Part shown: positions 4,067-59,856 of the stretch, in pieces
Layout: the number at the start of each line of letters is the position of its first letter
Numbering within the stretch: the stretch's first letter is position 1
Assembly: GCA_024277435.1 (NCBI GenBank)
Contig: JAJRVJ010000028.1
Coordinates: forward strand, 97,300 to 161,299
Length of the DNA stretch: 64,000 nt
Source: Patescibacteria group bacterium
GTDB taxonomy: Bacteria; Patescibacteriota; Patescibacteriia; UBA9570
Reading direction: 5' to 3'
Position numbers and translations under genes: made by a program
Notes under the pieces: generated by a model
Databases searched by the model: none
The model's input: only the letters and a program-made list of their open reading frames with translations
Told to the model about the DNA's origin: nothing

Positions 4067-4855
4067 ATGGTCGGAACATTTCTTGATACAATGTATGAAT
4101 ATAAAGTAGAGGAAGTGATGCAACGTAAGCAACAGAAATCACTTATTGATTTGAAGCAGGAAGTGGTAGATTATTCTGTTGAAGGACGTGATTTTGTTGC
4201 CAGCCTTCAAGCATCTGCACAACAACCTGCTATTATTGCAGAATTCAAAATGGCTTCACCAAGTATGGGTGCGATTGCGCCGCAAGCTAATTTGGCGGCG
4301 GTTGTTAAATCGTACGCTGCTAATGGTGCAGCAGCAATTTCGGTACTTACCGATGAAGATTTTTTTCAAGGCTCACTTACAAATCTCACAGAAGCAAAAT
4401 CACACACCACATTACCGATATTGCGAAAAGATTTTATTGTAGACGAATATCAGGTGTATGAATCTGCTGTGGCCGGAGCCGATGCATTATTATTAATTAC
4501 CAGCATGTTAAGCGCAGAAAAATTGAGTACATTAGCGAGGTTGGCACGTGAGTTAGATATGCAGATTCTTATTGAGGTGCATGCTATAGAGGAGATTGAG
4601 CGCGCTGTGCAAGCGCATCCAGATATGTTGGGGATTAATAATCGAAATCTCCACACTATGGATGTTAATTTGCAAACATTTGCAGATTTAATAAAACACG
4701 TTCCAGATGATATGATAGTTATTGCTGAATCGGGAATATATACGGCAGATGATCTTACTTTTGTTAAAAAAGCGGGAGCGCATGCAGCGTTAATTGGTAC
4801 CAGCCTTATGAAGGCTACGGATCCTGGAAAGCAACTTGCAGAATTATGTCGGTAA
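4067..4855 (+). CDS. trpC: indole-3-glycerol phosphate synthase
   Basis: ATG at 4067, 4 nt after the trpD stop. Motifs VLTDEDFFQGS, ILRKDFIVDEYQ, GINNRNL. Confidence 0.85.
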   Translation: MVGTFLDTMYEYKVEEVMQRKQQKSLIDLKQEVVDYSVEGRDFVASLQASAQQPAIIAEFKMASPSMGAIAPQANLAAVVKSYAANGAAAISVLTDEDFFQGSLTNLTEAKSHTTLPILRKDFIVDEYQVYESAVAGADALLLITSMLSAEKLSTLARLARELDMQILIEVHAIEEIERAVQAHPDMLGINNRNLHTMDVNLQTFADLIKHVPDDMIVIAESGIYTADDLTFVKKAGAHAALIGTSLMKATDPGKQLAELCR

Positions 4856-8493: not shown

Positions 8494-10249
8494 AGCTAAA
8501 AAAACTGATCCAGTAACACCGCTGGCAAAGCCAATTAAATATTCTATCGCGGTACCTGGTTCAAAATCGTTGATGAATCGAGCGCTTATTTGTGCTGCCC
8601 TTGGTAAAGGGAAGTCTGTATTACGTAATCCAATATATTGTGATGATACGAATTACATGATGAACGCTTTAGAAAAATTAGGCGTACGTATTGTGAAAAA
8701 ACCTAATGCTGTATGGATATATGGTAAAGGTGGAAAGTTTACATCGCCACAGCGGCCATTGCATTTAGGAAATGCTGGAACTACAACCAGATTTCTTATA
8801 CCACTCGTTCCGGCCGGAACTATCGTTACCGGAAACAAGCATATGCAAAAACGGCCCCTTACCGATTTGCTCAAGGCTTTAGAAACATTAGGATATATTT
8901 ATGAAACAGAAACTGGTTGTCCGCCAGTAAAAATAGTTTCACGTAATCAAGCAACAAGTACAATTACCATCAAGGGTACGATGAGTAGTCAGTATATATC
9001 AGCATTATTGATGTTGGCTCCTACATTGCAAAAACGCTTAACCATCAACGTATCTGGTACGTTGGTTTCAAAACCATACGTAGCAATGACACTGCAAGTG
9101 ATGAAGGAATTTGGGATCAAGGTAACCAATAAAAATTTCAAACAATTTACAATTCAACCACAGACATATACTCCAACTACCTATGAAGTTGAGGGTGATG
9201 CGAGTAGCGCAACATATTGGTGGGCCTTAGCCGCTATTAGTGGAAGTACTATTACCGTTACGAATGTTCCTGAAGATACATTACAGCCAGATCGTGATAT
9301 TTTACGTGTGTTGGAAAAAATGGATTGTCGGGTAGAGGGTAATACCGTGATTGGACCAGTTACTTCCCCCAACGCCGTGGAAGTAAGTATGCGGCACATG
9401 CCTGATGCAGTGATGAGTGTGGCAATGGTAGCAGTCTGTGCGCGTGGTACCACAGTATTAAAGCAGATTGCGCATTTAGCAATTAAAGAAACGAACCGAT
9501 TAACAGTATTAGCTGATAATCTCAAGAATCTAGGAGTAAAGGTTAAGGTAACAAAAGATAGAATTGAAATAACTGGCCAGCCTAAGAAGTGGAAAAGGGG
9601 AGTGATTGCTACACACGATGATCATCGGTTTGCTATGGCATTTGGGATACTAGGTTTAGTACAGCCTGGAATTACTATTGATACACCAGCCTGCGTACGA
9701 AAAAGCTACCCAACATTTTGGAACGATCTACGTAGTATTCAGCGCCATAGTAAGGATCAAACCATTGTTCTTACTGGTATGCGTGGCTCAGGAAAAAGCA
9801 CATTAGCCAAACATTTGGCGAAGAAATACACTGCTACGTTAATTGATCTTGATAACGAAATTGAAAAAGAGTTAGGCATGACAATTAATCAGTTCATCGA
9901 TAAAAATCCATCTACGGGCTGGAAGGGCTTTCGTAAAGTAGAACGAGAGCTTACTAAAAAGTTTTCAAATCAAAAAAATACTATCATTGCTACCGGCGGA
10001 GGCACATTGATGTTTGATGAAAATTATGCTATTATAAAGCATAATTACATCGTATTTTTGAATTCACCATTAGCGGTGTTGAAGAAACGATTGGTGCAAG
10101 ATAGCAATAAACGCCCTGCGCTTTTACATGACACGCTTAAAGAATTAGGAAGTATCTGGCAGGAGCGTAAAAGCCAATATTATTTTGTGGCCGACCAAAT
10201 CTTTGACATGTATTACGTACACAAAGATGATCGCAGTTACTTTAACTAA
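8477..10249 (+). CDS. aroA: bifunctional 3-phosphoshikimate 1-carboxyvinyltransferase (EPSP synthase) fused to a C-terminal shikimate kinase
   Basis: 590 aa. EPSPS motifs LHLGNAGTTTRFL and KETNRL. C-terminal P-loop GMRGSGKST with shikimate-kinase-like tail. Confidence 0.85.
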
Positions 10250-11519
10250 TCCAAAACTTCTCAAGCTTGCGAATGCAACTCAAGCGGACTTTATTGAGAT
10301 ACGAACTGATCTTTATCCGAAAGCTAATTTTACAAATTTGTTAAACCGGTGTGAGAAGCCGGTTATTTTTACAATCAAGTCTGCACAAACTGTACTGCTC
10401 GATCATATTGATTCACCCAAAGTGAAGTATGTAGATATTGATTATCGTTTACACCGGTTGATTAGGGATTTTCGTACACTACGCCCTAAGCGTACAAAAT
10501 TAATTGTGTCGTATCACGATTACAAGGAAACCCGTTCTTGGAAAGAGTTGTCAGAACGTGTAACAAAATTACGCACACTCAAGCCAGACGTTATCAAAAT
10601 CGCTACAATGATTGAAGAGTTTGATGATTTGCACATCACGATGCGGCTACAAAAAAAATTAAAGAACAAAGGTATTGTTATTGGAATGGGGGACCTTGGT
10701 ATTATGTCGCGCATTTATAATAAGTCACTATTAACGTATGCACGGCTTAATGTAAAAACCACCGCAGCCCCTGGTCAGTTAACTGTTGATGAATTAAAGA
10801 GCATGCAACTGTATGGATTGGCTGGTCATAGAATTCAAGAGAGCTTAAGCCCTGTAATGCATAATGCAGCGTTTGAGCATTTTAAAATCCCGCATCTGTA
10901 TCAATTATGGGATACCACTGACGCTAAGAAGTTTATGGAGGTATTTAATTTCTTTGAACTTCCTGGGGCTTCTGTAACCATGCCGTTCAAACATGATGTG
11001 ATGCCGTATCTTGATAAAATAGATGTACATGCAAAAAAAATAGGGGCGGTGAATACACTAGTTCGCAAAGGTAACAAGATTATTGGATATAATACAGATT
11101 GGCTTGGTGTAAGAACAGCCTTAAAAGGAAAATTAAAAAATAAAAAGGTACTTATTCTTGGTTCTGGTGGTGCGGCAGCCGCGGTTTATTATGCGGCTAA
11201 AAAAAATCATGCTACATCTGTAAATATGCTTACGCGTCATGAAATGCCAACTGAAGAGGATGACTACGATGTGCTTGTAAATGCAACTCCTGTATACGAT
11301 ATGGTGCTAGTCCCAGAGGATTCGTTATATAGCAAAGTGGTTATGGATTGCAACTATGGTAAACCAACAGTTTTACTTAGGCAGGCAACACAAAAATCGC
11401 ATAAAGTAATTAACGGTTTACCAATGCTATTGCATCAAGGTGTAGAGCAGTTTACACTATGGACCGGTAAAAAAATGCCCGTCCGCAAAATAGAACAGTT
11501 ACTTAAAATATCACAATAA
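10227..11519 (+). CDS. aroE: bifunctional type I 3-dehydroquinate dehydratase / shikimate 5-dehydrogenase (AroD-AroE fusion)
   Basis: ATG 10227 (MIAVTLTNP) overlaps the aroA end. N-terminal DHQase-I-like, C-terminal SDH motifs (SLSPVMHNAAF, GAVNTL, NTDWLG, GSGGAA). Confidence 0.8.
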   Translation: MIAVTLTNPKLLKLANATQADFIEIRTDLYPKANFTNLLNRCEKPVIFTIKSAQTVLLDHIDSPKVKYVDIDYRLHRLIRDFRTLRPKRTKLIVSYHDYKETRSWKELSERVTKLRTLKPDVIKIATMIEEFDDLHITMRLQKKLKNKGIVIGMGDLGIMSRIYNKSLLTYARLNVKTTAAPGQLTVDELKSMQLYGLAGHRIQESLSPVMHNAAFEHFKIPHLYQLWDTTDAKKFMEVFNFFELPGASVTMPFKHDVMPYLDKIDVHAKKIGAVNTLVRKGNKIIGYNTDWLGVRTALKGKLKNKKVLILGSGGAAAAVYYAAKKNHATSVNMLTRHEMPTEEDDYDVLVNATPVYDMVLVPEDSLYSKVVMDCNYGKPTVLLRQATQKSHKVINGLPMLLHQGVEQFTLWTGKKMPVRKIEQLLKISQ

Positions 11520-13680: not shown

Positions 13681-14379
13681 ATGAACATTGGAATTATTGG
13701 AGTAGGGCGGTTTGGCTCTCTATTAGAAAAACATCTTTCAACAGATAATACAGTAGTTACATTCGATAAAGGTGATCCAGGTGAAGAGTTAATATTATGT
13801 GATCTTGTTATTTTTGCAGTGCCGAATAAAATATTGCAGGATATTGTATATGAGTATCAGCCATTTATCTCTAGTGATGCCACGGTAATGGACGTGGGAT
13901 CAGTAAAAGTGTTGCCGTGTGAGATCTTGCAAGAAGAATTTTCTGATAGAGCATTAGGAACGCATCCGTTATTTGGGCCAGATAGTGCAGGTGAATCTTG
14001 GGACGGGCATAAAATGGTGTTTTGTAAACTAGATATCTCGGATGAACGATATACGGCTGTAAAGAAAGTATTTACTGCTAGAGGAATTACAGCAATTGAA
14101 AGTACGCCAGAGGAGCACGATAAAATGATGGCTAAAACTCAAGCTCTCGTACATTTTATGGGACGGGCGTTATCTGGTATTGAAGAGCAGGAAATTTCTA
14201 CGCCGGATTATGGGAATTTATTGAAGATGATGGAGAAGGTAACAAATGATACCTGGGAGTTATTTTTTGACATACAGAATTTAAATCCGTATGCTGAAGC
14301 TGAACGAAAACAACTGATTACAAAATTACAATCATTAGAAGAACAAATACACGATGACCAACAACAACGCACAACGTAA
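13681..14379 (+). CDS. tyrA: prephenate dehydrogenase
   Basis: 232 aa with N-terminal NAD fold IGIIGVGRFGS. TyrA-like core. Confidence 0.8.
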   Translation: MNIGIIGVGRFGSLLEKHLSTDNTVVTFDKGDPGEELILCDLVIFAVPNKILQDIVYEYQPFISSDATVMDVGSVKVLPCEILQEEFSDRALGTHPLFGPDSAGESWDGHKMVFCKLDISDERYTAVKKVFTARGITAIESTPEEHDKMMAKTQALVHFMGRALSGIEEQEISTPDYGNLLKMMEKVTNDTWELFFDIQNLNPYAEAERKQLITKLQSLEEQIHDDQQQRTT

Positions 14380-14635
14380 ATTAGAAGAGTTGCGAAAACA
14401 AATTGATGAGATAGATAGTGATATTGTGCAAAGTATTGCTAGACGGCTTGTAGTTGTAGAGGAGATCGGTGAAGTGAAAGCTGAATCTGGTTTAGCCGTA
14501 CAAGATGCTAATCGTGAAGCTAAGTTATATGTAAAATTAAATACGCTAGCTCATGAACATGGTGTGCCATTAGATCTCATCATGCATATCTACGATTACA
14601 TCATTAGTCAAGCGCGTGATCGCCAGCAGCAATAA
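14354..14635 (+). CDS. chorismate mutase (AroQ class, monofunctional)
   Basis: 93 aa. LRKQIDEIDSDIVQSIARRLVVVEEIGEVK is the typical AroQ helix pattern. Last gene of the operon. Confidence 0.8.
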   Translation: MTNNNAQRKLEELRKQIDEIDSDIVQSIARRLVVVEEIGEVKAESGLAVQDANREAKLYVKLNTLAHEHGVPLDLIMHIYDYIISQARDRQQQ

Positions 14636-14669
14636 CTACATCTCTTGTGGATAATTATACTCGTTTTTA

Positions 14670-14698
14670 TTGACACATATTTCTGAATGCGATATGTT
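14670..14698 (+). promoter_or_regulatory. sigma70-like promoter (TTGACA-17-TATGTT) reading into the non-coding region
   Basis: Consensus -35 and 4/6 -10 with 17-nt spacer, directly after the operon end. Confidence 0.35.
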
Positions 14699-15128
14699 GT
14701 TACTAAGTATTATGAATAGTAAAAAATCTTTTAACTTAATCCACAAGATTTGGAACACAACACTCCTCGTGAAGATGGTGTGTGTTTATGTTGTCACTAC
14801 AATTCGACGCACAAATTACGGGTTAAGTTCTATGAGCCATATATAGATTAAAAGATATTAAGGCAAATAACGAACGAAGCCCGCAAAAACAGTGGGATTT
14901 TTTATACGCCTAGACCAGTTTCTGAAACGTTGGAAATTACTCTAGCCGGATAAAACCGGTAAGTTAGCTCTTTACATGTGTATACCATCATTGTTATGCA
15001 ATGGCGATATAACATCAACGTATGGTCAATGAATGCATTGGCCTTATGGCAACGTGATCTTTGATCGTAACCATCTAACTTATATGTTCTTGGTCGCTCA
15101 ATGTATTTATAGTATATATGCATATTGA

Positions 15129-15206
15129 GCGGCTGGGAACCTTAAGCCACATGGAGTGGGCCTTCTTTGACAATGAAGGTGACGGGTTCGATTCCCCTCG
15201 GTCGCA
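15129..15206 (+). ncRNA. tRNA-like element of 78 nt: a 7-bp acceptor stem (two G-U pairs), a canonical T-arm GGGTTCGATTCCC, a discriminator A, and a non-canonical D/anticodon region. It is a degenerate tRNA, a tRNA 3' remnant, or a tRNA-like end of a longer ncRNA.
   Basis: gcggctg (15129-35) pairs with cggtcgc (15199-205). T-arm ACGGG-TTCGATT-CCCCT has one C-C mismatch. The best internal hairpin, ccttc/gaagg, has a 9-nt loop. An intrinsic terminator overlaps the 3' end. Confidence 0.3.
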
Positions 15207-15222
15207 CGAATCGTGCTTTTAT
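15204..15222 (+). terminator. intrinsic terminator (gcacg-aat-cgtgc followed by a T-run)
   Basis: 5-bp GC stem followed by TTTTAT. Confidence 0.55.
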
Positions 15223-15327
15223 AGTGTAGAGAAGAAATCTCCACTATGAAAAGCTTTGAGGGTGGGTACATTCCCACACAGATATTGACTTCGGTCACCA
15301 TCTGTGGAGCACAAGTATCACGTTGCC

Positions 15328-15383
15328 CCCTTCCCAGTGTGTATCTTACTTAATGTAAGTACTAGGTACACACTGTTCAAGGG
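15328..15383. repeat. 56-nt imperfect nested palindrome (ccctt/aaggg, ccagtgtgta/tacacactg, cttac/gtaag)
   Basis: Three concentric inverted-repeat pairs, visible by eye, in an AT-rich non-coding region. Confidence 0.5.
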
Positions 15384-15529
15384 ATTGTATTATCATTACA
15401 ACCATTATGAATTATTCAGGGAAACAACTTATTCTTATTGTGCTTAACCTCGTGATTAATATCACGCTGGGATCTTTATGGTTTAAAAAAGAAATGTAGA
15501 TTGATATTTTCTTCAATAACCCTAAAGAT

Positions 15530-15556
15530 CCCCGCGCGATAAACGTGGGGTTTTTT
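15530..15556 (+). terminator. intrinsic terminator (ccccgcg-cgataaa-cgtgggg followed by TTTTTT) at the left edge of GC-rich island A
   Basis: 7-bp stem including one G-U pair, followed by a T6 run. Confidence 0.6.
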
Positions 15557-15721
15557 CATTTAGGCTAATTCTCTGATCTCCCTCTCCTGAAAGGATGGGG
15601 GTCGGAGGAGGGGTCGATCAATGAATCGGTGGTGCTTATATGAGGCGCCAATAGGGTGCCTCAATAGGCATAAATCCACCAATTGTTCTTTACAGATGAT
15701 GAGTATGCAATACGATTCGAG

Positions 15722-15762
15722 GAAGCGCTGTATGGACTACACCGATGTCCATACAGCGCTTC
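15722..15762. promoter_or_regulatory. perfect 16-bp inverted repeat (GAAGCGCTGTATGGAC-N9-GTCCATACAGCGCTTC) upstream of the island A ORF; candidate operator or 5' leader structure
   Basis: The arms are exact reverse complements. Sits 53 nt upstream of ATG 15815 and is followed by direct repeats gcgcatc(t)gcgcatc. Confidence 0.5.
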
Positions 15763-15814
15763 CCGCGCATCTGCGCATCTTCATCTAACCCCGAAGACCC
15801 CTCAAGGAGGTCCT

Positions 15815-16213
15815 ATGTCGAGCAGCCTGCTCTCCAATCGTCCCGATTTCGCCATGCGCACTCGCGGTGGCCAGCGCCTGGCGTTCCACACCAGCGGTGG
15901 CGTCACCATGGCCTTCAGCCCCGCCACCAGTCAGCCCGTGCGCGCCCGCCTTGTCAGCGAGAAGGGTAACTCAAACGGTTGGCACCTAGTTGGTACTGCC
16001 GAGTTCGATGCGATGGCCACGCTCTACGGGCTGGTCAATGCCTTCGGCTCCTGGTGCCTGCGTGTCGTCCGCTTCGGCGTGGAGATGCTGGTGGACCTCA
16101 CTGCTCGTCACCTGGTGTGTGGTCGCTACGAAGGCGATGACGACTGGGTCAAGCTCGAGGCCGAGGGCTTCTGTGAGCTGGTGCGCGCGTACAACAACAT
16201 GTGCGCCGTCTGA
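15815..16213 (+). CDS. hypothetical protein (133 aa) in GC-rich island A
   Basis: ATG preceded by the strong SD AAGGAGG (7 nt upstream). About 65% GC with GC3-rich codons, unlike the host. A 12-bp GC hairpin follows the stop. Confidence 0.55.
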   Translation: MSSSLLSNRPDFAMRTRGGQRLAFHTSGGVTMAFSPATSQPVRARLVSEKGNSNGWHLVGTAEFDAMATLYGLVNAFGSWCLRVVRFGVEMLVDLTARHLVCGRYEGDDDWVKLEAEGFCELVRAYNNMCAV

Positions 16214-16230
16214 TGAGATGTTTTCGGGGA

Positions 16231-16266
16231 GAAGCGGTGGTGTGGTTCTAAGCCCACCACCGCTTC
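16231..16266 (+). terminator. GC-rich hairpin terminator (gaagcggtggtg...caccaccgcttc) after the island A ORF
   Basis: 12-bp perfect stem with no U-tract (high-GC-organism style). Confidence 0.5.
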
Positions 16267-16287: not shown

Positions 16288-16316
16288 TTGCAACACTTCA
16301 AAAATTTTCTTATAAT
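16288..16316 (+). promoter_or_regulatory. sigma70 promoter TTGCAA-17-TATAAT
   Basis: Near-consensus hexamers with 17-nt spacing, 40 nt upstream of ATG 16356. Confidence 0.55.
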
Positions 16317-16355: not shown

Positions 16356-18950
16356 ATGGATCACACATTTCTACAATTACAAAAACGTTTAGCAAAACAA
16401 CTCTGGATCGTTAAAGAACAAACCAATAAAGAGCGCACTCTCGTGTATATCGCAGGAATGTCGCTTGATCAAGAAGAGCTAGCCAAAGTGGCTGGTATTG
16501 CGTTTTATGAAGAGCGATTACTATATGTAATTGGTCTACTTCGTAATCCTGAAACAACGGTAGTCTTCGTTACCTCCACACAAATTGACCCAGTAATTTT
16601 AGAGTATTATTTCCAACTATTTGGACGTAATAAACAAGAACAGGCCAGCATGCGTAAGCGCTGGCATCATTTTTATATTGGAAATAGTCGCACTCATAAA
16701 ACTCTTACGCGAAAGGTATTGTCTTCCAAGCGGGTAACCAACCAGGTGTTATCAAAAATTGTGAGCAAAGAACATGCAGTGTTACGGTGTTTTAATGTGT
16801 CTGAAGATGAACAGGCTTTAGCTGTTAAATTAGGAATTCCATTATTTGCTCCTAATCCCGACCTATTACATTGGGGTTCAAAATCTGGTTCCCGTAAAAT
16901 ATTTAAACAGGCTAAGCTAAAACCAGCGTATGGAATTGAAGATATTCATTCGATGGAAGAGCTTATTGCAGCCATTCGAAAAATTAAGAAGCAGCGTAAT
17001 CCAGAGCAAGTTGTTATTAAATTTAATTACAGTTTTTCTGGCGTTGGTAACGCAAATTTACTACTAAAGAAGTTTCCAAAATCAAATAAAGCCGCTGAAC
17101 AATATCTTAAAAAGAATATTGTGCCGTGTGAGCCGGGCATGACAAAAGTACAGTATCTAAAAAAATGTTTCGAAATGGGCGGCATTGTTGAAGAATGGCT
17201 AGTTGGAGATAAAGTATATTCACCAAGCGTACAAGTACTCATTGAACCAAATCAAGAAGTACGTATTTTATCTACACATGAACAATTATTAGATCCCGAA
17301 ACAAAGCAGGTGTATTTAGGTGCTCGTTTTCCAGCTCGTAAAAAATTACGACCATACATTGTAGATCAGGCTAAGGCGGTTGGTAATGCCTTAGCAAAAG
17401 AAGGTGTTATCGGACCACTTGGTATAGATTTTTTGGTAGTGAAAAAACGCGGAAAAACATATACGCATCCGGTTGAAATTAATTTACGCAAAGGTGGTAC
17501 CACGCATCCATTTCAAATTGCCCAAATGCTTACCGAGGGAACTACTCGTCCGATTGGAGCAATGCTTGGTAAAAATAAGAAGAAAGTATATTACTACTCA
17601 TTCGATAATATTAAGTCTTCGCAGTATACGGGGCTTACACCGAAACAGTTAATAGCTATCGTGCGAGAATCGGGACTGGAATTTGATTCCGAAGGAAATA
17701 TGGGGGTAGCATTACATTTAATGGGTGCGCTCCGTAAATATGGCAAATTCGGTGCAGTATGTATTGCCCGCTCACCAAAGGCAGCTGAACAACTATTTGT
17801 GTTATTGAAAAAAGTAGTTGATGCAAAAGTGGAGGAATTGGATATTGCCATAGAGGCTGAAGAGCTTGAAAATACCGTGAATCGTAAACGTTTAGTGGAT
17901 ACATTTGTTACGTTAGCAAGAATTCCCAGCCCTTCAGGTGAAGAAGATCAATTGCGCATTTGGTTACGTGAGGAGTTGGTGCGTTTAGGGTGTACAGTGC
18001 GGGTAGATAAGGCTGGAAATATTATTGCTAAAAAAGCTGGCGTGGGTAAAGTGCCAATATTACTTTCATCACATATGGATACAGTGCAGCCATGCCATAA
18101 TGTAAAACCAGTTGTGCGTGGAGATGTGATTATGACCGACGGCACAACTATTTTAGGCGCCGATAATAAAGCCGGAATAGTATATATTATTGAAGCCTTG
18201 CGTATACTGAGAGAAAATAAATTTTCACACATACCATTAGAAATTGTACTATCCACGTACGAAGAGCAATTTTCTCAGGGAGTGAAAGCTTTAGACATGT
18301 CAAAAATTAAATCGCCATTTGGATTAGTAATTGATGGTGCAGATGTAGGTGAGGTAGATTATACAGCACCATATATTGCAGTAATTGATGTAACTATAAC
18401 TGGCAAGGCGGCTCATTCGGGTGTAGAGCCAGAGAATGGTATTAGTGCAATTCAAATTGCTGCGCAGGCCATTAATCGTATGAAGCTTGGAAGAATCTAT
18501 CCAGATACTACCGCGAACATTGGATTGATTACGGGCGGAACTAATCGTAATGCTATCCCTGGAGAAGTAAGGCTTATTGGTGAAGTGCGTAGTCTTTCAA
18601 AACGGAAGCTTGAAGAGCAACTTGAACGCATGCACAAAGCATTGGAGGATGCCGCAGAAAAATATGGTGGTTTGTTGGCAATAGATAGTAGAGTTGCAGT
18701 GAGTGGTTATACATTTTCAAAAACCGATAAAGATATTAAACACATTATGGCTGTAATGAAGCGGGTTGGTATTCAGCCACAATTACGACAAGCTGGCGGA
18801 GGGTCTGATGCGAATGTATTTGTAATGCGCGGTGTAAAAACTATCGATGTAGGTACGGGAGTACGTAAGCCCCATACTGTTGAAGAGCATATCAATATCA
18901 ACGATATGGTGCAGATGGCTGAATTCGTTTTAGAGATGATCAAGGTATAA
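16356..18950 (+). CDS. Fusion protein (864 aa): an N-terminal ATP-grasp-like ligase domain (about 500 aa, tentative) joined to a C-terminal M20-family metallopeptidase (PepT/ArgE/DapE-like).
   Basis: C-terminal M20 motifs: SSHMDTV, GADNKAG, TYEEQ, ITGKAAHSG, GGGSDANV. N-terminal half has an ATP-grasp-like Gly-rich segment, KFNYSFSGVGNANLL, but no confident family assignment. Confidence 0.6.
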   Translation: MDHTFLQLQKRLAKQLWIVKEQTNKERTLVYIAGMSLDQEELAKVAGIAFYEERLLYVIGLLRNPETTVVFVTSTQIDPVILEYYFQLFGRNKQEQASMRKRWHHFYIGNSRTHKTLTRKVLSSKRVTNQVLSKIVSKEHAVLRCFNVSEDEQALAVKLGIPLFAPNPDLLHWGSKSGSRKIFKQAKLKPAYGIEDIHSMEELIAAIRKIKKQRNPEQVVIKFNYSFSGVGNANLLLKKFPKSNKAAEQYLKKNIVPCEPGMTKVQYLKKCFEMGGIVEEWLVGDKVYSPSVQVLIEPNQEVRILSTHEQLLDPETKQVYLGARFPARKKLRPYIVDQAKAVGNALAKEGVIGPLGIDFLVVKKRGKTYTHPVEINLRKGGTTHPFQIAQMLTEGTTRPIGAMLGKNKKKVYYYSFDNIKSSQYTGLTPKQLIAIVRESGLEFDSEGNMGVALHLMGALRKYGKFGAVCIARSPKAAEQLFVLLKKVVDAKVEELDIAIEAEELENTVNRKRLVDTFVTLARIPSPSGEEDQLRIWLREELVRLGCTVRVDKAGNIIAKKAGVGKVPILLSSHMDTVQPCHNVKPVVRGDVIMTDGTTILGADNKAGIVYIIEALRILRENKFSHIPLEIVLSTYEEQFSQGVKALDMSKIKSPFGLVIDGADVGEVDYTAPYIAVIDVTITGKAAHSGVEPENGISAIQIAAQAINRMKLGRIYPDTTANIGLITGGTNRNAIPGEVRLIGEVRSLSKRKLEEQLERMHKALEDAAEKYGGLLAIDSRVAVSGYTFSKTDKDIKHIMAVMKRVGIQPQLRQAGGGSDANVFVMRGVKTIDVGTGVRKPHTVEEHININDMVQMAEFVLEMIKV

Positions 18951-19019
18951 TAATATAGTGCGCTAAACTCAGCAGAAAAATCGTCAAGCAATTCAGTGTA
19001 TAAAATGCGCATAATTATA

Positions 19020-19048
19020 TTGAAGAGCAGCATATAATTTGTTACAAT
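19020..19048 (+). promoter_or_regulatory. promoter-like TTGAAG-17-TACAAT, upstream of a 250-nt leader that ends in the palindromic terminator
   Basis: Hexamer match with 17-nt spacer; the leader 19049-19268 is non-coding. Confidence 0.3.
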
Positions 19049-19230
19049 ATAGCTGTCCCGTTCTTTCACTTAAACCACTTTCGACAATCTTTTCTCTAAG
19101 GGAGTTTTACATCGCTGTGCATCATGGAGTTCTCTGCGACCATTCAGGAACTTGGAAAGTTCTAAGCTGTTCAGTTGCGAACACCCACGTAAAATAAGAG
19201 GGGAGTTGGTTTAAGATATCAGGGCGGGCT

Positions 19231-19268
19231 AAAAAGTAGATGCATGCCATGGCATGCATCTACTTTTT
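19231..19268. terminator. 38-bp perfect palindrome AAAAAGTAGATGCATGCCATGGCATGCATCTACTTTTT (bidirectional intrinsic terminator / repeat)
   Basis: Exact reverse-complement symmetry with an A-run and a T-run flanking. A related core, GCATGTCATGGCATGC, recurs at 23404-23423. Confidence 0.6.
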
Positions 19269-19303
19269 CTGGGCAGTTGTTGTTTATAAGATAAAAATAG
19301 TAT

Positions 19304-20587
19304 ATGAATTTCAAAGAATTACGTACAAAAGAGTTCGCTCGATTAGTGGATCAGCAGCATGTGTATGTAGATTATACTGGTGGTGGGCAATGTCCGGCTT
19401 CTGTGATGCAGCAATATAGTGATTTATTACAGACTACGGCTTTTGGTAATCCACACTCTTATAATCCAACATCATTGCATACTACGGAACTCATTGAAGA
19501 AGTGCGTGGAATGATATTAGATTTTTATAATGCCAAAGATGATTACACACTTATTTTTACACAGAATGCTTCAGGTGCTTTAAAAATTCTTGGAGAATCA
19601 TATCCATGGGGAGAAAATAGCCTATATATTATAGCGCGTGATAATCACAATTCCGTATTAGGCATTCGTGAATATGCAAAAAAAGCCGGAGCAACGGTGC
19701 AGTATTGGGAACTTGATGATGAATTGCGTTTACAAAATAATCTTGGAGAGTTAATTGGTCAGCATCCTGGCAAAGATGTTGTTGTGGCATATCCTGCGCA
19801 ATCAAACTTTAGCGGCGTAATGCATTCATTAGAATATGTTGAACGAGCGCATCAGCTTGGCGCTACAGTATTTTTAGATACTGCCGCATTTGTTCCAACG
19901 CATACGTTGGACTTACAAGCTATTCAGCCAGATGCAGCCTGTGTATCTTTTTACAAAGTTCTTGGATTTCCAACTGGTATTGGCGCGCTACTTATTCGCA
20001 ACGATCTATTGGAGAAACTTGAGAAAGCATGGTTTGCTGGCGGCACTGTGCGTGGAGTAAGTTTGGAAGATCATGTATTAGAACGCGGCCATGAAAGTTT
20101 TGAAGATGGTACGGTAAATTATGCTCTTATTCCAGGGTTAAAATATGTATATGAATTTATTGAAGAGCTTGGTGGTGTTGAAAAAATTGAAGAGCATGTA
20201 ACAGCGCTTACCGCAAAAGCATTAGAAGAATTACAGCAGATAGAAAACGTGGTTGTGTATGGTCCTAAAACAATGGATAACCATGGTGCAACTGTTGCAT
20301 TTAATATTCTAGATAAAGCCGGAGCTCCTATTCATTATGGCGAGATTGAGAAGTTAGCGTATGATAAAAAGATTTCATTACGTGGAGGATGTTTCTGTAA
20401 TCCTGGAGCAGGTTCAAAATCGTTTGGTCTCGATTCAGCGTCGATGCAAGGATTATTAGGAAAATTAAAAACGCATTCTAAAGAAGATGCGGCCGTACCT
20501 GGGGCTATTCGTGTTTCATTTGGAATTGCTAATTCAGAAGAAGATGTAAACGCAGTAATAGATTTTGTAAAATCAGTTGTGCAGTAA
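19304..20587 (+). CDS. PLP-dependent aminotransferase class V fold enzyme, NifS/MOCOS-N-terminal-like (cysteine desulfurase / Moco sulfurase-like)
   Basis: 427 aa. PLP-Lys context SFYKVLGFPTGIGAL. LRGGCFCNPGAG motif typical of the MOCOS NifS-like domain. Confidence 0.65.
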   Translation: MNFKELRTKEFARLVDQQHVYVDYTGGGQCPASVMQQYSDLLQTTAFGNPHSYNPTSLHTTELIEEVRGMILDFYNAKDDYTLIFTQNASGALKILGESYPWGENSLYIIARDNHNSVLGIREYAKKAGATVQYWELDDELRLQNNLGELIGQHPGKDVVVAYPAQSNFSGVMHSLEYVERAHQLGATVFLDTAAFVPTHTLDLQAIQPDAACVSFYKVLGFPTGIGALLIRNDLLEKLEKAWFAGGTVRGVSLEDHVLERGHESFEDGTVNYALIPGLKYVYEFIEELGGVEKIEEHVTALTAKALEELQQIENVVVYGPKTMDNHGATVAFNILDKAGAPIHYGEIEKLAYDKKISLRGGCFCNPGAGSKSFGLDSASMQGLLGKLKTHSKEDAAVPGAIRVSFGIANSEEDVNAVIDFVKSVVQ

Positions 20588-20698: not shown

Positions 20699-20754
20699 TA
20701 ACGGACGCGAGTTGTAGCAAGCGTCCGTCCACCGAACTCCCCCTGGGAGCATGT

Positions 20755-21168
20755 TCAGATGATCTTGTGCTGTCTCCTGACGGAGGCAGCGACGACGTGG
20801 TCCAGTGCTTCCGCGCAGTTGCGCCAGGCGGTGCCGCTCACCACCACGATCTGGCCCTTGTTGGCGGAAGCAACGATCACGTCGGCGTCGCGCATCATTC
20901 CATCGACGTATAGGCTGTGGAATCCTACGGGCAGGAGGCCGGAGTCGATCAGGACCCGGATCCTCTCCTGACTACCGGACTTGCGCGGCAGGTTGGTCTG
21001 GACGGTGACACCCGGACCCAGGAAGTAGAGCTTCCCGTCGCTGGAGGTGTCAGCAGTGATGATCTTCTGACCGCGGCGGACGGTCAGCACCGATGCCCCT
21101 TCGGACACCAGGTGCTTCGCCGCAGCCTCGGAGAAGCCCAGTTGTTGCAGGATCTGTTCTGCTGTCAT
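20755..21168 (-). CDS. stand-alone cyclic-nucleotide-binding (CAP/CRP-type cNMP-binding) domain protein, 137 aa, with no effector or HTH domain
   Basis: Pattern VRRGQKIITADTSSDGKLYFLGPGVTVQT ... GLLPVGFHSLYVDGMMRDADVIVAS resembles the beta-roll plus phosphate-binding cassette (G-E-L...R-A). GC-rich. SD GAGGGAG upstream on the minus strand. Confidence 0.45.
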   Translation of the reverse strand: MTAEQILQQLGFSEAAAKHLVSEGASVLTVRRGQKIITADTSSDGKLYFLGPGVTVQTNLPRKSGSQERIRVLIDSGLLPVGFHSLYVDGMMRDADVIVASANKGQIVVVSGTAWRNCAEALDHVVAASVRRQHKII

Positions 21169-21382
21169 AGTTCTCCCTCGGATTGTTCCATGACAATCCT
21201 ATTCGGTGTGTACATATTTAATAGCATTATGAGTATTTTGTACATATCTATTGAAGTACTACTGAATATATTTTACTTGACAAAATACCCCAATAATTGG
21301 AAAATGATGTGCTCGCAGGACTAGTTTCCTGCTTGCGTTCCTTGAAAAATGGCACATGCCACTAACGTCATGAGGTCTCCAC
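21169..21382. promoter_or_regulatory. AT-rich divergent promoter region inside GC-rich island B, containing TTGACA-like hexamers and the palindrome TGGCACATGCCA (21350-21361)
   Basis: A local GC drop to below 35% between two divergently oriented GC-rich genes. The 12-bp palindrome sits 22 nt upstream of the cyclase ATG. Confidence 0.45.
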
Positions 21383-23332
21383 ATGTCTGATACCAATCTG
21401 CGTGGGGCCCTCCGTGATGTGGGCTCTGCAAACGCCGTTGCTACGGTTGTGGCGGTTGAGGCGGAAGAACTGCAGCGGAAGTTGCCTAAAGGCACGCTGG
21501 TCGAGCGTCTCTGGCACCAGGTTTTCATGCCGGAAGGCTGGAAGACCAAGGATCTACTGAAGCGCACCATGCCCCTGCTCACCTGGGTCGCCGTGGAGCG
21601 GAACCTGTTCCGCATTTTCGGTAATCCCCAGGCTGCTGCGAAGGCGGTGGCTGCCAAGGCCGCTACGGCGGACTTCGGTGGCTTGGAGTTGGCGGACTGG
21701 TTCCGTTGGCTTCTGCGGCTGTTCGTGCCGCCCAGTTTCGTGTTCGCCTCAATCATCCCGCGGCTGATGCCCAAGTTCAACACCCTGAAGCGAGTCACTC
21801 TCGTGGAAGAAGATGACAACCACGTCATCTATCGGGTGCAGTACATGAACAAGAGCGGTAAGCAGACGCACGATCCTCACGAGGATATGGGTTCCCGTGT
21901 CTGGTTCGAGACGGCCATGACGGCTGGCGCGGCCAAGTACTGGTTCCCAGACGCTGCGCGGGTAGTACACCACGTGTTGGAGTTGGACCTCGTCCAGTAC
22001 CTCCAGCACTTCACTGAGTTCATGCCTGGCACCACCTTCTACCGGTCCGGTGGTACGCTGCGTATGCGCGCTACCGATGCGCGGCCCGACGTCATGGATA
22101 CGGTAGTGGCCACTCAAGTTCAGCTTCGGCCGGATGATGACGGCTTCTACACCGTCGTTGCCACTCAGGAAGACCTGAACATGGGCTTCGACACTCGCCT
22201 TGGCTGGCGGGTGGAGCGTGATATTGCGGCAGTGGACGCCATGGGTGAAACCTGGCAGCCCGTCGCTAGTGGAACGATCTTCTGCGCTGGAGCCAAGTGC
22301 TCGCTCACCGAGTACAACTGGCGTCCGCAGACAATCGCTCTGCGCGCGGTGTTCCGGTTCGCGGTGTTCTGCATCAAGCTGCTCGGTGGAAGCTTCACTG
22401 GCGCCGCTAGGTTGGCCGAAGCCAAGACGAACATGGCTGAGCTGGCTGCCGAGCGTGATAACGCTCTGGGTGACGCCGAGCGTGAACGTGCGCTCCGCCA
22501 GGAGATGGACAAAGATCACTTCCCGACGGAACAGATCGCTACGGCGATGCGTGAGCAGGCGTTCAGCCCGCGTCAGCTCTTCGGAGCGTTGCTGTTCTTC
22601 GATCTCGGCGATAGCACGGCTGCTAACGAGCGTCTTCCGAACTACGCGGATTTGCTCCAGCAGTTCATGGATGCCATCGATGCCGTTATGGTGCGCTACC
22701 GTGAGGGAGCGCGTGAAGACGGTGTCGTAGGATTCACGGTCTCGGAGCCGGGCGATGCTCGCCTCATGATCTTCTCGCGGCGCTGGAATGAGCACCACCA
22801 GACTATGGACGAGGCCGTTGCCCGCGATTAGCTCGCGGTGGCCATTGCGGTGGCCACGGAGATCTTCGCGATCTTCAACCAGGTGTTCAATGTTCCTGGC
22901 GGCCCCAGCTGCGTGCGCATCGGCATTCACTACGGCGAGTTCAAGCTCGATCGCCGTGGTGCCAGCAAGAGCCGTGCTCAGTGTTACGGCGATACCACGA
23001 ACACCGTCGCTCGTTTGGAGGCGGCCGGTAAGTTGCCTGGCGTAGCGGCCGGTGACCTGCGCACCGTGGTGCTGATGGCGAGCGTGGCCGAACTGGTGGC
23101 AGACAGTCACGAGTTCGTGCCGGTCGGCACACAGACCTTCAAGGGTGTCTCCGGACACCATGAGGTCGTGCGGCTGCTGCTGCCTGGTCAGCAGGGCGTT
23201 CGTCGCCTCAAGGACTTCACCGAGGAGATCAAAACCTTGCCGGACGTCGCAATCCAGCAGTTGGGGCCAGCGGACGCCAACCGTGAACTCCTCGACGAAC
23301 TCCTCGATGAGTTCGTCAGCGAAGCAGAGTAG
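21383..23332 (+). pseudogene. Sensor class III nucleotidyl (adenylyl/guanylyl) cyclase: an N-terminal domain of about 390 aa of unknown type, a coiled-coil linker and a cyclase catalytic domain. It is interrupted by an in-frame TAG at 22829-22831.
   Basis: Cyclase motifs FFDLGDST, EPGDARLMIF, VRIGIHYGEF and YGDTTNTVARLE are split across ORFs 21383-22831 and 22838-23332, both in the same frame. About 62% GC. Confidence 0.6.
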
Positions 23333-58392: not shown

Positions 58393-58716
58393 GTGCCTAC
58401 ACCGGAACGTCCGGCGGTGCTGATTCATTCAGCTACCGCAGAAATATACGAGTTCCTGCCAACTCGTGATCGGCAGCGGCGACAAGACTCTCTCGCTCAG
58501 TTACAACTACTCAAGCAGCTGCTGCAGCGCCTCACAAGCAACGACATTACTCTGTCGCGTGCAGGGGAGTTGATTGTGAGACCCAACTTGGCGAGGCGCC
58601 GGCTGAGGGAGAATCCTCATAATCTGACGCACTACTGGGCAGCACGCTATAGTCGCTGCACTAACTGGGCTATGCTGCAATATGTTTTGCGCCTGTGCGC
58701 ACTATGCCCGGCATAG
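58393..58716 (+). CDS. hypothetical protein (107 aa), first ORF of GC-rich island C
   Basis: SD AGGAGC followed by GTG. GC-rich codon usage. Preceded by TTGACA-like promoter 58345-58375. Overlaps the next ORF by 22 nt in another frame. Confidence 0.4.
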   Translation: MPTPERPAVLIHSATAEIYEFLPTRDRQRRQDSLAQLQLLKQLLQRLTSNDITLSRAGELIVRPNLARRRLRENPHNLTHYWAARYSRCTNWAMLQYVLRLCALCPA

Positions 58717-58901
58717 ATCATTTGGTTGGCGAGTTGAATCGGGCTGGTCATCCGTTGCGTGAGCAAGTGCGACGCGCTCGGTTTGCTACTGATGTGCGCA
58801 TGCTACTCGCTGCGACGCGTCGCCTTACGGAGGCGCACCACCCGGCTGGAGCTGGTAGGCTTGTGGCTTGGCTCACTGGAGCTAAAGTGGAGGTGCCGTA
58901 G
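58695..58901 (+). CDS. hypothetical protein (68 aa), overlapping partner of the preceding ORF (possible two-gene module or frameshifted single gene)
   Basis: GC-rich ORF. Followed by hairpin cttggag-tag-ctccaag (58902-58918). Confidence 0.35.
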   Translation: MRTMPGIDHLVGELNRAGHPLREQVRRARFATDVRMLLAATRRLTEAHHPAGAGRLVAWLTGAKVEVP

Positions 58902-58977
58902 CTTGGAGTAGCTCCAAGAATGTTCAAGCGCCTTCTGAGTTCATCCCAGAACTTAGAAGGCAATAGGACAATACTCA

Positions 58978-59076
58978 TTGACTTTTTATTAAAATATAGT
59001 ACACTCGTGGCGCCTGTTAATTAGGCGTTCTTTACAATTAGGAGGAATTATCGTGAAGTTGAACGTATACTCGTAG
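58978..59076 (+). promoter_or_regulatory. promoter TTGACT-16-TACACT, then imperfect IR ggcgcct/aggcgtt, strong SD AGGAGG and a 7-codon mini-ORF (GTG-KLNVYS-stop, 59053-59076); candidate leader-peptide control region for the 176-aa ORF
   Basis: Hexamers at 58978-83 and 59000-05. SD 59040-45. GTG 59053. TAG 59074-76. Confidence 0.35.
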
Positions 59077-59194
59077 GTCACGGGTGCGGCAAATAGTGTG
59101 GTTTATACATGCGCATTACTTGCTACATCCGTGGCCACAAAAAAGAGTGGAGACGCTCTGATCTGTGTATCCCCCAAAAAAAGGTAGGTAAGTC

Positions 59195-59725
59195 ATGAGC
59201 ACCCCGCTCAGCATCATTCTCGGCAACTCTGTTGTCGGCCCCATCGTTCCCGTCCGCGTCGTCGAGACCGTGGATCCGCGGGTCTCGATTCACTTCAAGG
59301 ACGGCATCGTCCTCAACCTCGTCGGCCTCACCGCCGAGGAGCGCGATGGCTTCGACGAGACCGGGATCAACTGGCACGACGACATCGAGGACAGCGGAGC
59401 GCTGCTCCACCGCGACATGGGCGTCCTGTTCGACCGCAGCGGGATGACCAACCTGCGGCAGGGCGGTGAGCCCCACCCCGACCCCCGTGTTCGCCAGCAG
59501 GACTGGCAGAACACCGTGAGTTCGGTTACCGTCACCACGGGCGCCGGCCCCTACGGGCTGCTGGTGGCCCTCTGCGCCGCCGGCTGGGGACCCGCCATCA
59601 GCTCCCGGATCGACGTGGTCGGCCACATGCGGATGGCCGTGGGCAGCCGGGACTCCGCAGAGCTGGCCCGCTACGTGGGCGGGGCCTTCCGCTCCAGCGG
59701 ACGGAAGTACGTCCGGGTCGCCTAG
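59195..59725 (+). CDS. hypothetical protein (176 aa), GC-rich island C
   Basis: ATG with upstream AGGTAGG. About 65% GC. Followed by GC hairpin 59764-59802. Confidence 0.5.
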   Translation: MSTPLSIILGNSVVGPIVPVRVVETVDPRVSIHFKDGIVLNLVGLTAEERDGFDETGINWHDDIEDSGALLHRDMGVLFDRSGMTNLRQGGEPHPDPRVRQQDWQNTVSSVTVTTGAGPYGLLVALCAAGWGPAISSRIDVVGHMRMAVGSRDSAELARYVGGAFRSSGRKYVRVA

Positions 59726-59856
59726 AGCGCGCTGAAGAAGCGCAGGATCTACGGTTCAACTTCACGCCCCCTTCAATCGTGTATGCGAGGGAAGGGGGAA
59801 CGTGATCTTTCTAGATTAGATAAATAGTCTACAGAGAATACGTAAAATTTGCAGAG

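Follow-up and report, generated by a model that had tools for sequence, protein, structure and literature searches.

An ATP-grasp ligase–M20 peptidase fusion gene followed by a conserved structured small RNA in a lineage of Patescibacteria

We analyzed a 64,000-nt stretch of DNA from a Patescibacteria group bacterium (contig JAJRVJ010000028.1, positions 97,300–161,299; hereafter, the window), in which three features follow one another on the plus strand: a gene for a protein that joins an ATP-grasp ligase to an M20 metallopeptidase, a structured small RNA (sRNA) ending in an intrinsic terminator, and a gene for a class-V pyridoxal phosphate (PLP) enzyme. Their coordinates, together with those of the predicted promoters, are given in Table 1. 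An earlier reading of the window (the original prediction), made without database searches, had described the fusion and the PLP gene and had regarded the spacer between them as a leader controlling the PLP gene. Related loci are designated below by L numbers and homologous proteins by P numbers.

Table 1. Features of the fusion gene, the sRNA and the PLP gene (window coordinates)
Feature	Position	Strand	Description and evidence
Predicted promoter of the fusion gene	16288–16316	+	TTGCAA, 17-nt spacer, TATAAT; 40 nt upstream of the ATG
Bifunctional open reading frame, ATP-grasp ligase + M20 peptidase	16356–18950	+	864 aa, ATG start
Ligase domain (aa 26–480), PGM1/BesA-family ATP-grasp	16431–17795	+	Pfam, NCBIfam, PDB, Foldseek, residue conservation
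PepT-like M20 metallopeptidase domain (aa 508–864)	17877–18947	+	TIGR01883, 3gb0, invariant columns, structural model
Conserved block after the stop codon	18968–19007	+	CTCAGC..GTCAAGCAATTCAGTGTATAAAATG; kept in L001 and L003
Predicted sRNA promoter	19020–19048	+	TTGAAG, 17-nt spacer, TACAAT with extended -10 TG (TGTTACAAT); consensus match
Conserved structured sRNA	19054–19229	+	176 nt here, 133–187 nt elsewhere; covariance model, covariation
Intrinsic terminator of the sRNA	19230–19268	+	Perfect palindrome with A5/T5 flanks; -24.4 kcal/mol alone
Class-V PLP enzyme, group-II cysteine-desulfurase-like	19304–20587	+	Aminotran_5 PF00266, 7e-56; motifs SFYK and GCFCNPG

The fusion gene and its two domains

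The fusion open reading frame (ORF) was confirmed at the length and position originally proposed. A sigma-70-type promoter agreeing with the consensus at 10 of 12 positions was predicted in front of it and was the top site in the region scanned, as judged by consensus match only.

The C-terminal half was assigned to PepT-like M20 peptidases. Residues 512–862 scored 314 bits against the NCBIfam model TIGR01883 (curated cut-off of 274), and the same half matched Pfam Peptidase_M20 and M20_dimer, the dimerisation subdomain comprising residues 678–770. Its matches to PepT-like structures in the PDB reached 1e-70 for 3gb0 and 6e-61 for 3rza, with 35–37% identity. The N-terminal half matched the Pfam families ATP-grasp_IQCH (64 bits), ATP-grasp_3 (34 bits) and PGM1_C (35 bits), each above its cut-off. 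With the NCBIfam model of BesA (NF042917), it gave an E-value of 6e-46 and 157 bits against an equivalog cut-off of 750; the ligase half is therefore a relative of the BesA family and not an orthologue. The BesA crystal structure (8yi6) was aligned over the full length (8e-39, ~27% identity), and the EINLRKGG Mg/catalytic motif, present in the ligase half along with the PGM1_C domain, was aligned with EINLRK of BesA.

In an alignment of 18 fusion proteins, sharing 48–68% identity, the M20 residues H573, D575, D603, E636/E637, D660 and H840 were invariant, and the ATP-grasp residues K176-S-G178, K222, E279, D358, E374-x-N376 and R378 were invariant or nearly so. The ligase residues were also ~90% or more conserved across 60 sequences including standalone ligases. 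We take H573, D603, E637, D660 and H840 to be the di-metal ligands and D575/E636 the catalytic residues, as mapped onto PepT by motif; the lysine of the central domain, the hinge glutamate, the E-x-N Mg ligands and the catalytic arginine of the ligase are presumed from general knowledge of ATP-grasp enzymes. Because both residue sets are kept in this way among the 18 fusion proteins, both halves look catalytically competent.

An AlphaFold2 model of the fusion protein, built on a 60-sequence alignment, had a mean predicted local distance difference test score (pLDDT) of 91 and a predicted template modelling score (pTM) of 0.65. A long helix (aa 474–505) bridges the ligase and M20 halves in the secondary structure of this model. 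Foldseek searches with the model returned template modelling (TM) scores of 0.86 to BesA 8yi6, 0.81–0.86 to 3gb0/3rza, and 0.77 to 8ynd, a Streptomyces ATP-grasp peptide ligase matched by the ligase half. The complete M20 motif set and the PGM1-like ATP-grasp character of the N-terminal half, both proposed originally from the letters of the window, were thus borne out: TIGR01883 was exceeded and its motif residues were invariant in the 18 homologues, while Pfam, the BesA model, 8yi6 and Foldseek agreed on a ligase. Domain searches and structure prediction of the whole fusion recovered the same combination of ATP-grasp/PGM1_C and M20.

The fusion architecture was also found in other genomes, as the original prediction had suggested looking for, and was very rare. 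An exhaustive HMMER search of 1.84 billion clusters at 50% identity revealed three ligase–M20 representatives (P0009, the fragment P0121, and P0122), and ~20 such fusions were present in a collection clustered at 90% identity. The carriers named there were 'Patescibacteria group bacterium' or unclassified 'bacterium' metagenome-assembled genomes. The fusion enzyme was found in a small clade of the Candidate Phyla Radiation (CPR)/Patescibacteria. The chorismate synthase of the window was closest to that of Candidatus Kerfeldbacteria (74%), followed by Peregrinibacteria (65–68%), which places the organism in the CPR. Deposited fusion proteins bear only the database label 'M20/M25/M40 family metallo-hydrolase'. 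Standalone PepT-like M20 members had ~360–370 aa and lacked the 500-aa N-terminal ligase, and of the standalone PepT-like loci L009–L088, the matches listed in a contig scan with the fusion alignment, none carried the ligase.

The ligase family and the predicted reaction of the fusion enzyme

Standalone homologues of the ligase half (~520 aa, ~40% identical), apparently uncharacterised, were very common in Cyanobacteria, Bacteroidota, Chloroflexota, and Proteobacteria. The PGM1-related ligase family comprised 6,398 sequences at E <= 0.001 among the candidates scored and 9,698 representatives in the HMMER cluster search; we found only two characterised members in it, both acting in specialised antibiotic pathways. 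BesA couples the gamma-carboxylate of glutamate to the amine of L-propargylglycine (bioRxiv 10.1101/2025.10.10.681649), and PGM1 acylates the N-termini of short, ribosomal peptides (PMC8359417; PMC8939145). The fusion protein belongs to the same ATP-grasp subfamily and shares the PGM1_C domain with both of these relatives, each of which acylates an alpha-amino group with an amino-acid-type carboxylate. Unlike the fusion protein, neither is joined to a peptidase, and no bes or pgm biosynthetic genes were located near the fusion gene. The M20 half, in its turn, possesses all metal-binding and catalytic residues and the dimerisation domain of the PepT-like enzymes (TIGR01883; 3gb0, 3rza) and of tripeptidase PepT, from which it differs by the 500-aa ligase at its N-terminus. 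PepT-type M20 enzymes cleave the N-terminal residue off very short peptides.

Zinc hydrolases were found next to this ligase family more than once. A gene encoding an AstE/AspA-type zinc deacylase was located directly upstream of a standalone ligase gene, on the same strand, in two proteobacterial loci. Ligase–AstE/AspA fusion proteins (P0144, P0270, P0271, P0279) were also identified and occur in eukaryotes, P0270 coming from a transcript of Physarum polycephalum and P0279 from the transcriptome of another eukaryote. Two independent fusions to zinc amidohydrolases of different folds, with the operon linkage in addition, form a classic argument for a ligase and a hydrolase working on a common compound. 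From this recurrent partnership and from the inverse chemistries of the two domains, we infer that the two halves share a single small compound with an amide linkage. They probably form and cleave, or add and take off, the same amide bond on a small substrate of amino-acid or peptide type. The original prediction had proposed the synthesis and processing of a small peptide or an amino-acid conjugate, which remains the best reading now that the ligase family is seen to pair with AstE/AspA zinc deacylases as well.

By analogy with BesA and PGM1, the ligase half would convert the carboxylate of an amino acid into an acyl-phosphate and would then transfer the acyl group to an amino acid or a short peptide at its alpha-amine. 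The M20 half, presumably a dimer-forming di-zinc peptidase, would remove the N-terminal amino acid from very short peptides. These activities might form a make-and-break cycle, as in glutathionylspermidine synthetase/amidase (Gss), or they might stand at the beginning and the end of a 'protect, modify, deprotect' route, of the kind seen in the gamma-glutamylation by BesA or in LysX/LysK. In Gss, LysX/LysK and PuuA/PuuD, an ATP-dependent amide-forming ligase works together with a hydrolase that cleaves the same amide or one further downstream; the ligases of Gss and LysX are ATP-grasp enzymes, LysK is an M20 enzyme, and the hydrolase of Gss has a CHAP fold. The likeness of the fusion enzyme to these systems lies in functional logic only, and the analogy, drawn from general knowledge, does not imply membership: ligase subfamily, hydrolase fold and domain order differ, with no sequence relationship beyond the superfamily, and a gene for the carrier protein of the LysX/LysK system (LysW) was not present near the fusion gene.

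Several observations weigh against a shared substrate. Among the five gene contexts of standalone ligases that were sampled, a clear hydrolase partner (AstE/AspA) was present in only two. Another contained a weak, divergently oriented GATase-like gene, one was a divergent Aldedh/CN_hydrolase/Amidohydro/Aminotran_3 cluster, and in one (L103) the ligase had an Amidohydro_1 neighbour identified as NagA. The latter scored above the NagA cut-off and was rejected as a hydrolase partner, its position being probably coincidental. Fusions of the same ligase to WD40 beta-propellers (P0169, P0176) hint that some family members act on proteins, and the placement of the two halves relative to each other is uncertain because the pTM of the model was only 0.65. 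The fusion could simply join two independent activities. That the halves are unrelated in function, and their union an evolutionary accident or an artefact of assembly or gene calling, is a quite improbable explanation, with which the poorly defined inter-domain arrangement of the model would agree. It is opposed by the recurrence of this architecture, unbroken in frame and with its linker helix conserved, in at least 18 proteins of 48–68% identity from independent assemblies, as well as by the independent fusion of the ligase family to another zinc hydrolase in eukaryotes and its operon linkage in proteobacteria.

We also considered that the ligase half tags the terminus of a ribosomal peptide or a protein in the manner of PGM1, RimK or graspetide ligases, with the M20 half shortening the tag or taking it off. 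The ligation of ribosomal peptides by PGM1 (PMC8939145; PMC8359417), the ligase–WD40 fusions, and the Pfam-less ORFs of 68–108 aa found upstream of the fusion gene in several loci speak for such a role. These small ORFs differ between subclades, and no homologue of them was found in the window; they were therefore rejected as PGM1-style precursor peptides. The M20 domain, moreover, is of the PepT-like clade, whose enzymes take very short peptides as substrates, and we regard protein or peptide tagging as unlikely.

The fusion enzyme is a new variant of known enzyme kinds. As a single bifunctional CPR protein, it offers a handle for identifying the substrate, and the repeated partnering with zinc amidohydrolases provides a testable hypothesis for the role of the remaining PGM1-related ligases.

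The small RNA downstream of the fusion gene

The spacer between the fusion gene and the PLP gene (18951–19303) was found to be non-coding, since indels between genomes were not multiples of three. A small protein gene in this place was rejected on account of indels of 1 and 11 nt and of the lack of a conserved start codon. In alignments with L001/L002 and L003, the nucleotide conservation of the spacer exceeded that of the flanking protein-coding genes. A metagenome scan with a strict RNA motif gave 0 matches, and a relaxed motif gave 11, of which only L092 was genuine according to BLAST and reading of the sequences; a fifth copy (L089) was recognised by sequence inspection. The covariance model built from the window, L001/L002, L003, L089, and L092 matched eight loci, seven of them distinct, with 43–174 bits (173 bits for the window). 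The copies in L090 and L091 scored 53 and 43 bits, respectively, and were separated from the fusion gene by one or two unrelated genes.

In the consensus fold, stems P1 and P2 close the RNA and are followed by a large internal loop, stem P3 (GGGAGUY/RAYACCC), and an apex of variable length. The internal loop measures ~17–19 by 13–15 nt, and nowhere is the RNA better conserved than in the two strands of this loop. The 5' strand, CACUUUCGACAAUC (19076–19089), is invariant; the 3' strand follows the pattern ACCCAC-S-UAnAnY-..AGAGGGG and contains a -10-like UAAAAU (19190–19195) and a predicted 3-bp mini-hairpin. In the seven distinct sequences, 87.6% of the cells were paired, compared with 40–58% when the partners were slid. 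Compensatory double changes were found in 19 pairs, including all eight pairs of P1, and none of 500 shuffles reached the observed values; the folding z-score of the RNA region was -3.75. The seven-sequence alignment was fitted to the covariance model and represents one lineage, which has to be set against these figures; an alignment made with MAFFT only, independent of model fitting, already shows 13 covarying pairs. Covariation thus lends strong support to a rod-shaped molecule whose central internal loop is conserved. The non-coding nature of the spacer and its perfect terminator hairpin 35 nt before the start codon, as described in the original prediction, were confirmed, and the conserved structure and homologues, which had been named in advance as the test of the element, were present in seven distinct genomes.

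A search against Rfam 15, also suggested at that time, gave no match at gathering scores, with only noise at E <= 10 (18900–19400). Signal recognition particle (SRP) RNA, transfer-messenger RNA (tmRNA), RNase P and the riboswitch families were accordingly rejected; an SRP RNA is additionally argued against by the lack of conservation of the apex. A search of the window for antisense targets of the conserved loop sequence revealed nothing convincing.

A promoter was predicted immediately upstream of the RNA. The motif TGnTAnAnT occurs at an equal distance upstream in L001, L003, L089, L090, and L092, while L091 has TATAAT without the TG; an extended -10 is thus present in six of the seven genomes and some -10 element at a fixed distance in every copy. 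Further upstream, the conserved block that follows the fusion stop codon in the window has a counterpart, GTCAAC...GTGTATAAAATG, in front of the sRNA in L090 (~9462–9486) and a weaker version in L092 (~897–925). In the form GTCAA(G/C)...GTG(T/G)A(T/C)(A/G)AAA, the block lies ~35–65 nt upstream of the -10 element of the sRNA in several genomes and might serve the sRNA gene as a further promoter or as the site of a regulator.

The terminator consists of an A-run (19231–19235), a stem (19236–19263) and a T-run (19264–19268). Its position, with no conservation of sequence, is maintained in L001, L003, L089, L090, and L092. We failed to find a terminator between the fusion stop codon and the RNA in the window; the fusion gene, lacking a terminator of its own, probably shares that of the sRNA, which would then also end the fusion-gene transcript. 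Such sharing could account for the conserved synteny on its own.

The original prediction called the PLP enzyme 'leader-controlled' and saw a riboswitch- or attenuator-like geometry in the spacer, that is, a leader governing the class-V PLP gene through its terminator. A conserved, strongly structured element with an intrinsic terminator this close to an ATG is what such a leader would look like; an Aminotran_5 gene comes next in three of the seven genomes (the window, L003, and L089), and a weak promoter after the terminator was seen in the window. The genomic context largely refutes this reading. The RNA lies downstream of the fusion gene in all seven distinct genomes, and the gene after it varies, being different in the other four: a Tdh-like alcohol dehydrogenase gene in L001, a WrbA-like flavoprotein gene in L092, and Pfam-less genes in L090 and L091. 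In L091 (8515–8724), the RNA runs directly into tRNA-Pro(GGG) without a terminator, and an RNA abutting a tRNA is typical of co-transcribed stable RNAs. The same tRNA-Pro was also observed in the related L004 (11586–11661) after ArsP genes, where the sRNA was not found.

The predicted folds point in the same direction. In all six terminator-bearing copies, the minimum-energy fold holds both the closing stem (18–23 pairs) and the terminator (10–19 pairs), with 0–2 crossing pairs between them and none in the window according to thermodynamic prediction. As the terminator and the closing stem coexist with essentially no cross-pairing, the predicted folds show no switch geometry or antiterminator logic. 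Right behind the U-tract of the terminator, L003, L089, and L092 have a second extended -10, with the next ATG 6 nt further, which suggests separately initiated, leaderless mRNAs. Given also the promoter predicted directly upstream of the RNA and the absence of a riboswitch match in Rfam, we consider a leader function very improbable, and neither the leader control nor the attenuator geometry proposed originally was upheld. The sequence evidence favours an independent sRNA gene, comprising 19054–19229 and the terminator and having its own extended -10 promoter.

A functional tie may nonetheless lie behind the constant position beside the fusion gene. Instead of a housekeeping RNA of general function, the RNA might be a regulator or stabiliser of the fusion mRNA derived from its 3' untranslated region, or it might be used by the enzyme as a cofactor or substrate. 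It follows the fusion gene in 7/7 genomes, with fusion-protein identities down to ~50%, two intervening genes at most, and no terminator between stop codon and RNA in the window. We consider this unlikely in view of the predicted promoter of the RNA itself and of the unrelated genes intervening in L090 and L091. The RNA was not found in L004/L005 even with filters off, and L004 carries the fusion gene without the RNA nearby; this absence tells against the tie and is also a point against the independent sRNA gene. The linkage may be simply inherited along with a syntenic backbone, in which the fusion gene is preceded by genes of the shikimate pathway and of aromatic amino acids and followed by Tdh/Kbl-like genes, Fer2, an M50 peptidase gene, and rpsL-rpsG-fusA. 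The fruitless antisense search in the window offers no help to a regulatory tie either.

As to the identity of this independent sRNA, we tentatively propose a 6S-like RNA. 6S RNA sequesters RNA polymerase by mimicking an open promoter. Its rod-shaped fold is made up of a closing stem, a bubble in the centre and an apical stem, the 3' strand of the bubble carries a small hairpin and a -10-like element, its gene has a housekeeping-type promoter, and sequence identity among 6S RNAs is limited (PMC8876501). 6S models are known to miss divergent lineages. The candidate resembles 6S RNA (ssrS) in its length of ~130–190 nt, its covariation-supported rod with closing stem, central bubble and apical stem, and its own predicted sigma-70-type promoter. 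At one place in the seven sequences, we found UAAAAU, UAAAUU, UAAAAC, UACAAC, UACAUU, and UAUACU, and a 3-bp CCU/AGG hairpin was predicted in the 3' strand of the bubble; both are suggestive, although short motifs of this sort are weak evidence. If the RNA acts as 6S RNA does, the -10-like hexamer would sit in the strand mimicking the non-template strand, the invariant CACUUUCGACAAUC would serve as the template, and the product RNA would begin approximately with 5'-(GA)UUGUCGAAAGUG. Two points weigh against a 6S identity: no Rfam 6S covariance model matched 18900–19400 even at E <= 10, and the candidate, in contrast to 6S RNA, was found in one CPR lineage only.

The RNA appears previously undescribed and would represent either a new family or a divergent 6S RNA. 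The genomes of CPR/Patescibacteria are tiny, and few regulatory RNAs are known from them; a conserved, covariation-supported sRNA missing from Rfam would enlarge their RNA inventory. If it is a true 6S RNA, global control of RNA polymerase by an RNA decoy would reach the CPR radiation.

The PLP gene and other observations at the locus

The gene after the sRNA encodes, as originally read, a class-V PLP enzyme with the GCFCNPG motif. Its best matches in the PDB were group-II cysteine desulfurases (7e-29), and it scored below every SufS and CsdA equivalog cut-off of NCBIfam. The orthologue in L089 was 62% identical, and its true start is a leaderless-type ATG at 4327. The database call of this Aminotran_5 gene starts at a TTG inside the sRNA (4258–4326), and the ATG at 4327 lies 6 nt after the extended -10 (TGTTATACT); here, the unannotated RNA has corrupted the gene model.

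The PLP gene is probably an ordinary neighbour, transcribed from just past the terminator and taking no part in the system, as far as promoter motifs and gene order can tell. Separate transcription is less well marked in the window than in other genomes: the promoter after the terminator is weak (TATAAG, 19285–19290, 13 nt upstream of the PLP ATG), and the arrangement of an extended -10 and a leaderless ATG was not enriched across the window, so the argument from leaderless promoters is drawn from L003, L089, and L092 only. Some read-through transcription into the PLP gene may occur. Altogether, an account in three parts, comprising a fusion enzyme with coupled activities, an independent sRNA gene and an unrelated PLP neighbour, seems moderately probable to us. 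A broader proposal is put forward with reserve: that the RNA founds a new CPR/Patescibacteria family, of 6S type or of a new class, and, separately, that ligase–hydrolase fusions and operons define a widespread write/erase system. If true, this system would reversibly place an amino-acyl group, possibly gamma-glutamyl, on a small metabolite or peptide at its amino group.

In the syntenic backbone, shikimate and aromatic amino-acid genes of the lineage were variably fused: type I 3-dehydroquinase (DHQase-I) with shikimate dehydrogenase, and 5-enolpyruvylshikimate-3-phosphate (EPSP) synthase with shikimate kinase. Prephenate dehydrogenase and chorismate mutase were fused in some loci and were encoded in the window by separate overlapping ORFs (the mutase as CM_2). 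These observations span 10185–11519 and 13681–14635 of the window, 1–995 of L003, and 2447–3424 of L090.

Sharp GC-rich islands (0.55–0.72 against 0.38–0.40 for the genome) were located in the window at 15750–16250, 20750–23250, and 58500–59750, and also in L001 (5250–7750), L003 (5750–7900), and L090 (3500–5900); in four genomes, one such island sits just upstream of the fusion gene. The islands had no mutual similarity by blastn or tblastx and contained ORFs on both strands without Pfam matches. The product of 21407–23245 (+) in the window shares 53% identity over 616 aa with a Pfam-less, GC-rich protein of 637 aa in L003 and is also a distant relative of a 654-aa protein in L090. This reading frame is broken by one in-frame TAG (22829–22831), which could be due to pseudogenisation, a sequencing error or read-through.

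In the ORF-poor gap 14636–15683, a tRNA/tmRNA-like 3' fragment was noticed at ~15172–15212 (+), with a T-arm (GACGGGTTCGATTCCCCTC) and an acceptor strand. ARAGORN called nothing at this place, and Rfam gave a weak match to the 3' end of tmRNA at 15184–15196; a 35-nt patch was 86% identical to L089 (485–519). The fragment could be a divergent or permuted tmRNA, or the remnant of an integration site.

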